Positions 6,601 to 9,337 of a stretch of DNA of 16,781 nucleotides are shown piece after piece (the stretch's first letter is position 1; each line of letters opens with the position of its first letter). The DNA comes from a virus (taxonomy: Duplodnaviria; Heunggongvirae; Uroviricota; Caudoviricetes). The DNA lies in the IMG/VR virus record IMGVR_UViG_2859810971_000002. One strand, written 5' to 3'. The position numbers are program-made.

Positions 6601-9337
6601 TACCAAATTTTACAATTCGGATAACTCTGCCGCCCCTGCCAGCAGGCACGGGCGGCGTTCTCATGCATTCAAATCTGACGGGTATCAGCACGACCCCTGC
6701 ACCGAAGAACAGGCTGAATGGCTGATTCAGCGCTACCGCAGACACGGATACGAGATTAAGAAAGCCCTCAGTCTCGATTATCGTCACTGGATAATCTTCG
6801 TCAGGCTCCCTTATTCCGAACGGCCACCGCGTCCGTCCTGCACATTCCAGCAACGGATCTGGAGGTAATGTGCGGGTATTACTTCGACCTGTTCTGGTTC
6901 CGGAACTCGGGCTGGTGGTCCTTAAGCCAGGCCGTGAATCCATGCCGGTATTCCACAATACCCGGGTACTGGTGGAGCCGGAACCGAAAAGCATGCGTAA
7001 TCTGCCGTCCGGGGTCGTTCCTGCCGTTCGCCAGCCGCTAGTGGAAGACAAAACATTGCTGCCGTTTTTCAGTAACGCACGGGTGATTCGTGCTGCTGGT
7101 GGTGCTGGCGCATTGTCTGACTGGCTGTTGCGCCATATTAAATCCTGCCAGTGGCCACACGGCGATTATCATCACAGCGAAACCGTCATTCACCGTTATG
7201 GTACCGGCGCAATGGTGTTGTGCTGGCACTGCGACAACCAGTTGCGTGACCAGACATCCGAATCACTCGAGCAACTTGCTCATCAAAACCTGTCAGCATG
7301 GATGATTGACGTCATCGGTCACGCAATAAGCGGTACGCAGGAGCGTGAATTATCTCTGGCTGAATTATCCTGGTGGGCGGTCCGCAATCAGGTGGCGGAC
7401 GCGCTACCGGAAGCGGTATTACGTCGTTCGCTGGGGTTGCGTGCGGAAAAAATCCGCTCAATGTACCGTGAAAGCGACATCGTGCCGGGAGAGCAGACCG
7501 CCACCAGCATACTGAAGCAGCGCACAAAAAATCTTGCGCCGCTGCCTCACGCCCACCAGCAACAGAATCCACCACAGGAAGAGACGGTGGTCAGCATTGC
7601 CGTTGATCCGGAATCTCCGGCTCAGTATCTCCAGCGCCAGAAACCACAACGGGAAGAGATGCCTGTATACACGCGCTGGGTAAAAACGCAGAAATGCATG
7701 ACGTGTGGCAATCAGGCAGATGATCCGCACCACATCATTGCTCATGGACTGGGAGGGATGGGAACAAAGGCTGACGATTTGTTTGTTATTCCGCTGTGTC
7801 GTAAATGCCATAACGAACTACACGCCGGGGTAAAAGATTTTGAAGAAAAACACGGTAGTCAGTTGTTGTTGCTGATTCGTTTTTTAATGCACGCGAGAAA
7901 TTCGGGTGTTCTGAAGTGGAAAGCATAAATGACCGAACGCATAGAATTTGTTTTGCCTTACCCGCCAACGGTGAACACCTACTGGCGACGTCGTGGCAGC
8001 ACATATTTTGTATCAAAAGCCGGTGAGCGTTATCGCCGTGATGTGGCGCTAATTGTTCGCCAGCAGCGACTGAAATTAAACCTGTCCGGAAGGCTGGCGA
8101 TAAAGATTATTGCAGAGCCACCGGATAAGCGCCGTCGTGACCTGGACAATATCCTGAAGGCACCGCTGGATGCGCTGACGCATGCTGGACTACTTATAGA
8201 CGACGAGCAGTTTGATGAAATCAATATTGTGCGCGGTCAGCTCGTTCCTGGTGGGCGGCTGGGGATAAAAATCACAGAACTGGGGTGCGCATGAATAACC
8301 AGTATTTACAGTTTGTGCGTGAGCAGCTCATTATCGCCACCGCTGATTTGAGTGGGGCAACAAAAGGTCAGCTTGAAGCCTGGCAAGAGAATGCCATGTT
8401 CGATACAGGGCGTTACAGGCGTAAAAAAATCCGGTACCGCGATGAAGTGACTGGAAAAATGATAACGCGGGATAATCCACCAATCCCGGGAAAGCAATCG
8501 CTGGCGAAGGGGACGTCAATTCCTCTGGTCAGTCCGGTTGAGTTTTCGACATCATCGTGGCGGCGGGCTGTTCTGTCTCTTGAAGAACATCATAAAGCCT
8601 AGTTGTTGTGGTGTTACAGCGGGAGTATTTGTTGGGAATATCAGATCGCGATAACACAGTGGGCGTGGAATGAATTTAATGCTCAATCCGGTACCAGAAA
8701 AATTGCAGGGAAAACGCAGGAACGCCTGAAAAAATTAATCTGGCTGGCGGCGCAGGCAGTAAAAGCAGAACTTTTTGGTGGGGAAGGTTATGAATACCAG
8801 GAGCTGGCATTACTGGCGGGAGTGACAACTAAAAACTGGTCCAAAACATTTACTCGTCACTGGGTTGCAATGAAACACATTTTTCACCGACTGGATAGTG
8901 AGGCTTTATTGTTTGTAATGAGAACACGTTCAAAAAAAAGACGGCATTTTCAAAGCAAAGTGTTGCAAAAGTAGATTGAAAGGCATATATTCATGCAAAT
9001 CTGATACTTTGCCGATTTTGTACGTGATGGCAAAAGCAAACAAAACCCGCCCACAAGCGGGTTTTTTGTGCCACTTATCTCGGATAGACATGGTGAATGC
9101 GCTGGTGGAGGAGATAAGGGTGATTTTTGAATGCTTGCAACATTGATTTCGTAACGTTATTATCCTGCGCCCGGCCCTTTAGCTCAGTGGTGAGAGCGAG
9201 CGACTCATAATCGCCAGGTCGCTGGTTCAAATCCAGCAAGGGCCACCAACCGCCACTAGCTCATCAGGAAAGAGCGTCAACCCTTTAAGTTGAGTGTGCG
9301 AGGTTCGAGTCCCCGGTGGCGGTCCAGTGCCGACTTG

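Follow-up and report, generated by a model that had tools for sequence, protein, structure and literature searches.

Antitermination proteins Q of the lambdoid phages fall into three unrelated families, one of which is the Q82 family, Pfam PF06323 (PMC9388147). In phage 82 (X92588.1) a Q gene of this family stands between rusA and the late promoter pR', the latter accompanied by a pause element and terminator; the sigma-dependent pause of 82 pR' has been described as involving an extended -10-like element, a GCC discriminator from +15 to +17 and pausing at +25 (PMC5001585). The related AntQ of Gifsy-1 in Salmonella is encoded directly upstream of a short terminated RNA, isrK, and arrests growth when expressed alone by interfering with termination across the genome (PMC4825925). 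Forms annotated as inactive are also on record in Escherichia coli, where the Prokaryotic Genome Annotation Pipeline (PGAP) labels the Q of strain N8B7-2 as a pseudogene with an "internal stop" and those of strains FDAARGOS_943 and FDAARGOS_944 as "frameshifted". The subject of this study is a Q gene of the same family in the DNA of a virus of the Caudoviricetes (IMG/VR record IMGVR_UViG_2859810971_000002), a stretch of 16,781 nucleotides that is referred to as a whole as the window. Positions 8291-8979 on the plus strand are very probably a single inactivated Q gene of the phage 82 type, situated within the much decayed remnant of an ipaH-associated (Shigella-type) prophage beside a tRNA-Ser gene.

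The locus shares features with each of these systems and departs from each in its own way. As in phage 82, the gene belongs to PF06323 and follows rusA, with a candidate late promoter, pause element and terminator behind it. The sequence downstream of Q would fit 82 pR' in having an extended -10-like element, a GCC from +15 to +17 and, at +25, a U; the window copy differs in an amber codon at Trp104, a -1 frameshift close to the end of the gene and a T-to-C change in the candidate pause element. With the E. coli pseudogenes it shares the TGG-to-TAG change (N8B7-2) and the deletion leaving a run of eight A residues, A8 (the FDAARGOS strains), but in the window the two occur together, and its prophage, which is riddled with insertion sequences (IS) and carries an ipaH-like gene, is much further decayed. 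The likeness to Gifsy-1 antQ-isrK lies in the protein family and in a predicted short terminated RNA directly downstream of Q. In contrast to Gifsy-1, the isrK match of the window is below the gathering score, the genes that follow are tRNAs and a holin rather than orf45 and anrP, and the Q itself would be dead.

Antitermination Gene

The mechanical list of open reading frames (ORFs) for the window holds 8285-8602 (+, GTG start, 105 residues) and 8603-8974 (+, TTG start, 123 residues), which lie in one frame with only the TAG at 8600-8602 between them. Read from the ATG at 8291, this frame consists of 103 codons, the TAG and 123 more codons, for a total of 227, and ends with a TAG at 8972-8974. 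The start codon (8291-8293) overlaps the stop codon TGA (8292-8294) of rusA as ATGA; rusA itself, at 7929-8294 (+), encodes a Holliday-junction resolvase according to its ORF, a match to PF05866 (E = 8.7e-16) and the RusA annotation in relatives. A preliminary description of this DNA, made from the sequence alone, had noted the shared frame, the separation by a TAG only and the ATGA overlap, and the ORF list and translation agree with it on all of these. It had also placed the combined product where lambdoid phages encode Q and had proposed a profile search of the two halves as a check. In this search both halves were assigned to PF06323, the N-terminal half at profile positions 1-100 of 220 (E = 1.8e-39, 136.1 bits) and the C-terminal half at positions 102-214 (E = 4.9e-42, 144.5 bits), each against a cut-off of 25 bits, while an intact relative covers positions 1-216 as a single match (E = 1.7e-91, 306.2 bits). 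Since the matches of the halves to a single Pfam domain abut on the profile, the two ORFs are no chance pair.

On the evidence of its sequence, 8291-8979 (+) is one gene of the Q82 family that has been split in two. The extent of this antiterminator pseudogene follows from the PF06323 matches of both halves, from alignment to the intact gene of 690 nucleotides and from the 689-nucleotide pseudogene that PGAP annotates as "frameshifted" in the near-identical prophage of FDAARGOS_944. Because of the one-nucleotide deletion in the A8 run, the ancestral frame ends at the TGA at 8977-8979 instead of at the TAG at 8972-8974, where the window frame ends as read. Compared with an intact E. coli relative of 229 residues (strain Ecol_881), phage 82 Q is 76% identical, the Q82-like protein of phage 434 is 73% identical and Gifsy-1 Q 67%. 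More than 1000 complete E. coli genomes annotate the homologous stretch as "bacteriophage antitermination protein Q" with a RusA gene adjoining. In relatives, DUF968 is followed by rusA, Q, four tRNAs, holin, lysozyme, lysis protein, HNH and terminase; the window retains rusA, Q, promoter candidate, terminator, tRNAs and holin, an order shared by the annotated relatives. The position of the gene between rusA and the block of pR', terminator, tRNAs and holin, its family and its likeness to phage 82 Q thus bear out the earlier assignment to Q. No match to NCBIfam models was obtained for Q or for either half, and a sequence search of a Protein Data Bank copy returned no solved structure for any Q82-family relative, the single match being a weak and spurious one to a phage lysin.

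The preliminary description had left room for two genuine small genes, of 103 and 123 residues, that abut at the TAG. Mechanical ORFs are indeed present on both sides of this codon, and on a related contig, L011, both were predicted as genes by one gene caller, with products of 103 and 117 residues. The division of one Pfam domain between the halves argues against such a pair, as does the distribution of the stop codon: over 1000 E. coli records hold this stretch and the 80-mer containing TAG occurs in one of them, the aligned relatives having TGG within an ORF of 229 residues. In addition, the second gene would have to begin with TTG immediately after the stop without a clear ribosome-binding site, and it was left uncalled in L005, a contig identical to the window. 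With one domain spanning both halves and a sense codon in the homologues, the two-gene alternative is refuted, its remaining probability being practically nil.

Mutations of the Q Gene

The single Q gene is interrupted at 8600-8602 (+), where a G-to-A change at 8601 converts TGG, encoding Trp104, to TAG. Intact relatives are uninterrupted over 229 residues and have TGG at this codon, and column 104 is Trp in 9 of 9 aligned intact homologues, including one with as little as 24% identity, which answers the comparison for a sense codon that the preliminary description had proposed as a check. The second change lies near the 3′ end, where the loss of a C from AAAACAAAA leaves an A8 run at 8932-8939 (+); in the alignment, the intact TCAAAACAAAAG corresponds to TCAAAAAAAAG in the window. 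The resulting -1 frameshift at codon 216, also seen in the translations, exchanges the terminal SKQKTAFSKQSVAKVD and its stop for SKKRRHFQSKVLQK and a stop, so that the last 12-14 residues are rewritten. The ancestral tail, SKQK..F..Q..AK.D, is kept in phages 82 and 434 and in a Klebsiella phage, and because of this conservation the tail of the window must be the derived form. Alignment to the intact allele shows the Trp104 amber and the one-nucleotide deletion to be two separate lesions, both of them derived. The earlier view of a single amber splitting Q therefore stands with respect to the amber itself and fails with respect to its being the sole lesion, since the frameshift at 8932-8939 also alters the C-terminus. 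The frameshift is likely to have come earlier and the amber after it, because the A8 allele with Trp104 intact is common.

Translation from the native start would end after 103 residues, under half of the single Pfam domain, and would be expected to yield no active Q, with the remainder of the gene left untranslated.

Distribution of the Mutant Alleles

The exact 80-mer with TAG in the haplotype of the window was found in 1 of 1052 matching records of complete E. coli genomes, and that of a second haplotype in 1 of 1029; the exact 80-mer with A8 was found in 2 of 895 such records. A scan of species-representative genomes for exact matches to the 39-mer with TAG gave none. The exact 103-residue product is encoded on 21 contigs and is listed by NCBI as Q under a WP accession, while the A8 allele with Trp104, encoding 227 residues, was met on 152 contigs under the names S. 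flexneri or E. coli. The whole Q region of the window recurs with 100% identity at six loci, drawn from separate NCBI assemblies and from Logan read assemblies; one of them, on the 4.53-Mb chromosome CP026810.1, is identical to the window over all 5312 nucleotides compared.

These counts bear on whether the gene might be intact, with TAG, A8 or both introduced by sequencing or assembly error. Errors in homopolymer length are common, and a single sequencing programme (FDAARGOS) supplied both of the A8 records from E. coli. Set against this, the Q sequence with TAG and A8 together recurs in the six loci from separate NCBI and Logan assemblies, A8 with Trp104 recurs on the 152 contigs, and a base substitution is atypical of homopolymer error. 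Sequencing error is excluded, and there is next to no chance that the lesions are artefacts of any kind. Lesions of this kind were known before, almost down to the detail, the annotation of E. coli having flagged the equivalents of each as pseudogenes.

Origin of the Amber Codon

The amber codon falls within a former Dcm site at 8598-8602, which reads CCTGG in intact alleles and CCTAG in the window, as established from the sequence, an enumeration of Dcm sites and nonsense routes, and the three haplotypes described below. The G that mutated, at 8601, is opposite the inner C of the bottom strand, the one open to methylation; the change amounts to a C:G to T:A transition at this base pair of CCWGG, and its position and direction fit deamination at a Dcm site. 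Deamination of 5-methylcytosine at Dcm sites gives rise to C-to-T hot spots, and Coulondre et al. are said to have described in 1978 amber hot spots of this kind at Dcm sites in lacI. The present amber is like those of lacI in being made by a transition at the inner C:G of CCWGG and in its independent recurrence, and differs from them in that TGG rather than CAG becomes TAG on the coding strand. The Q gene holds three Dcm sites, all capable of giving an amber (at W31, W104 and Q170), which account for 3 of 114 possible nonsense substitutions.

The same TAG is present on three haplotypes: that of the window, that of E. coli O157:H7 N8B7-2 (9 differences) and that of E. coli O39:NM F8704-2 (20 differences). 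In N8B7-2 (L004, 2230-2919) the identical Trp104 amber occurs without the frameshift, and in F8704-2 (L006, 2501-3190) the nearest single-nucleotide polymorphisms (SNPs) flanking the amber are at 8491 and 8622 in window numbering; SNPs between the TAG haplotypes come as close to the amber as 21 nucleotides. Both E. coli cases are singletons amid many TGG alleles with otherwise identical 80-mers, and their prophage contexts differ. An independent origin on the three haplotypes appears much more likely than transfer. The amber would have arisen by deamination of 5-methylcytosine, and Dcm-site deamination would be the reason for which the same codon is hit on at least three haplotypes; this hot-spot explanation is well motivated, although unproven.

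Other amber alleles of the same gene were seen at L023 807-1316, L025 92-601 and L027 936-1307. A comparison of rarity with the Dcm-site alleles by means of products truncated at W90, W107, W115, W124, W126, W151, Q170 and W183 proved uninformative, as most of them are "partial" proteins at contig ends, and only the ambers at Q170 and W124 could be verified in this look-up as real and internal. The Q170 amber (CAG to TAG) predicted at a second Dcm site was found inside contigs from several samples, and the W124 amber (TGG to TAG), outside any Dcm site, on one contig from one sample.

Proposed Late Promoter Region

A candidate for the late promoter pR' overlaps the 3′ end of Q at 8963-8991 (+), with a -35 element TTGCAA, a spacer of 17 nucleotides and a -10 element TATATT; it was identified in a promoter scan and is kept in relatives and in phage 434. 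The T-run beside the -10 element (8986-8991) is one T shorter than in most relatives, a loss held in common with FDAARGOS_944. Downstream, at 9002-9013 (+), is a candidate sigma-dependent pause element of the 82 type, consisting of the extended -10-like TGATACTTT at 9002-9010 (TGATATTTT in relatives) followed by GCC at 9011-9013. If transcription begins at A8997, the GCC is at +15 to +17 and the U at +25 corresponds to 9021, and the assignment is an inference from this likeness to published 82 pR'. The T9007C change within the element is private to the lineage of the window, position 9007 being a conserved T in phage 434 and in four further sequences. A full-text literature search for the sequence of the pause element gave no match.

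An intrinsic terminator, tR', is predicted at 9042-9071 (+), where a GC-rich hairpin of 9 base pairs is followed by UUUUUUGU; the RNA fold (-24 kcal/mol, z -3.3) and the promoter and terminator scan agree, and the element of phage 434 aligned to it is annotated as a terminator. RNA polymerase starting at pR' would stop at 9042-9071 in the absence of an active Q, giving a leader RNA of only about 75 nucleotides. The Rfam isrK family (RF01394) has a weak full-length match to 8995-9067 (+), with 22.5 bits against a gathering score of 50 (E = 0.037). The ends of this match coincide with the start and end of the proposed leader RNA, and it lies directly 3′ of Q, as isrK lies after antQ in Gifsy-1. 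Two of the seven SNPs that distinguish the window from the FDAARGOS_944 prophage, plus the missing T that they share, fall between pR' and tR', and this module looks to have been freed from selection.

Prophage Remnant

From left to right the window contains an IS3-type fragment, an integrase fragment, tRNA-Asn, mtfA, tRNA-Ser(CGA), an integrase, IS1, hok, DUF968, rusA and Q, followed by four tRNAs, a holin, an IS66-family element with an IS3-family insert, a tail-fibre fragment, an ipaH-like gene with NEL and leucine-rich repeat domains on the minus strand, a methyltransferase and a tail-fibre assembly fragment. Positions 5331-10006 correspond to 5132-9807 of the FDAARGOS_944 prophage (L001), with 7 substitutions over 4676 nucleotides and no gaps. 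A complete IS1 at 4563-5330, recognised by its ends, by PF03400 on the ORF at 4812-5315 and by the onset of L001 homology at 5331, sits at the exact left limit of this homology in place of the immunity and replication region. Because IS1 replaces this region, the early promoters that normally transcribe Q are evidently gone.

The homology to L001 ends on the right at 10006, which is 16 nucleotides past the stop codon of the holin gene and within the lysozyme gene of L001. From lysozyme onwards the prophage is replaced by the IS66-family element with its IS3-family insert at 10007-13130 (+), in which Pfam matches to IS66 Orf1, Orf2 and transposase and to HTH_Tnp_1 and rve were obtained; the IS66 ORFs lie at 10089-10763, 10760-11110 and 11107-11922, and the transposase is cut short by the IS3-family ORFs at 11974-12276 and 12312-13130. 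The holin gene at 9775-9990 (+), of class II (P21 type), is intact (PF04971, E = 1.4e-35) with no difference from L001, and is the only late gene remaining, its partner lysozyme being gone. With almost no target genes left, and with a Q82-family protein being toxic on its own, loss of Q would be neutral or favoured.

A further alternative is that the 103-residue N-terminal fragment has been kept for a role of its own, for example as a decoy that hinders the Q of newly entering 82-type phages. All three amber haplotypes encode the same 103 N-terminal residues, and the native start coupled to rusA is retained; such identity over 103 residues is, however, expected at 97-99% DNA identity, no sign of selection was seen, the cut falls within a single Pfam domain, and expression is doubtful given that IS1 removed the upstream early promoters. 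Retention of the fragment is accordingly regarded as highly improbable. A wider proposal is that the Dcm sites of the Q82 family (W31, W104 and Q170 here) act as built-in weak points through which lysogens repeatedly silence a toxic antiterminator, so that the recurrent amber would reflect mutation bias together with selection for prophage taming and not drift, with retention of the 103-residue fragment as an anti-Q decoy as its bolder variant; this may be entertained as speculation, and it is unlikely to be correct.

The ipaH-like gene at 13829-15283 (-), assigned by domain content, is an ORF of 484 residues starting at TTG with leucine-rich repeats and a NEL E3-ligase domain. This ORF looks short for an IpaH, and it is flanked by tail-fibre fragments, with DUF4376 at 13036-13650 and tail-fibre assembly at 16512-16781. 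A Shigella-type prophage and host are suggested by the ipaH-like gene, by the abundance of IS elements and by the S. flexneri names under which contigs with the A8 allele are recorded.

Transfer RNA Genes and Suppression

The four tRNA genes downstream of Q form an array at 9173-9482 (+) with the anticodons CAT (annotated as tRNA-Ile in relatives), TTT (Lys), TGT (Thr) and TCC (Gly), as identified by ARAGORN, Rfam tRNA and the PGAP annotation of relatives. A sigma-70-like promoter candidate, TTGCAA and TATTAT with a spacer of 17 nucleotides, was picked at 9135-9163 (+) purely by its consensus match (9 of 12 positions) in a promoter scan. It stands between tR' and the first tRNA gene, which suggests that the array may be transcribed independently of Q. 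The preliminary description had suggested that, if this gene is Q, late transcription of the tRNAs and holin would be locked off at the downstream terminator. Because a promoter candidate lies downstream of the terminator, silence of the tRNAs does not follow from the loss of Q, and the claim is doubtful. With the late region beyond the holin replaced by IS elements, consequences of such a block are for the most part moot.

The tRNA-Ser(CGA) gene at 3252-3341 (+) adjoins the full-length integrase gene at 3369-4409 (-), and is probably the attachment site of the prophage. The amber suppressor supD arises by a change of the CGA anticodon of a tRNA-Ser; in the window this anticodon is still CGA. 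None of the six tRNAs that ARAGORN detects in the window (Asn GTT, Ser CGA, Met/Ile CAT, Lys TTT, Thr TGT and Gly TCC) has a CUA anticodon, in keeping with the earlier statement that no phage tRNA here reads amber.

These observations bear on the idea of a leaky or conditional Q made by readthrough or suppression of the amber. The frame is maintained across the TAG, and the recurrence of the amber in three lineages could in principle mean selection for a conditional allele. A stop codon followed by U is an efficient context for termination, and the TAG of the window has a U next to it. Besides this context and the want of an amber-reading tRNA in the window, where tRNA-Ser keeps its CGA, the amber is accompanied by the frameshift and the pR' changes, almost no late genes are left for a conditional Q to control, the stop is not conserved among homologues (as the TAG 80-mers at 1 of 1052 and 1 of 1029 and the Trp in 9 of 9 indicate), and the Dcm site explains the recurrence more simply. 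A conditional Q is for these reasons considered very unlikely.

Several points nevertheless weigh against the reading of 8291-8979 as an inactivated Q gene with the features described. The window spans 16.8 kb, and an amber-suppressing host tRNA may sit elsewhere in the genome. The A8 frameshift by itself may leave function intact, given that the 227-residue allele with A8 and Trp104 is common in S. flexneri. The hot-spot explanation draws on the identity of the site and on recurrence, while a W124 amber outside the Dcm sites also occurs once and the wider look-up was confounded. Finally, the pR' and pause assignments draw on likeness to a published description, with the +1 at A8997 assumed.

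Conclusions

The Q gene of the window would represent a further stage in the breakdown of a cryptic prophage, an ordinary pseudogene that carries little weight alone. It is mildly notable for its second lesion and for an amber codon at a methylcytosine hot spot that appears to have arisen at least three times. The recurrence of this amber warns against taking shared nonsense alleles as a sign of shared ancestry. As Q82 is the only Q family without a match in the sequence search of solved structures, natural loss-of-function alleles such as this one may be of interest to those who study its antiterminators.

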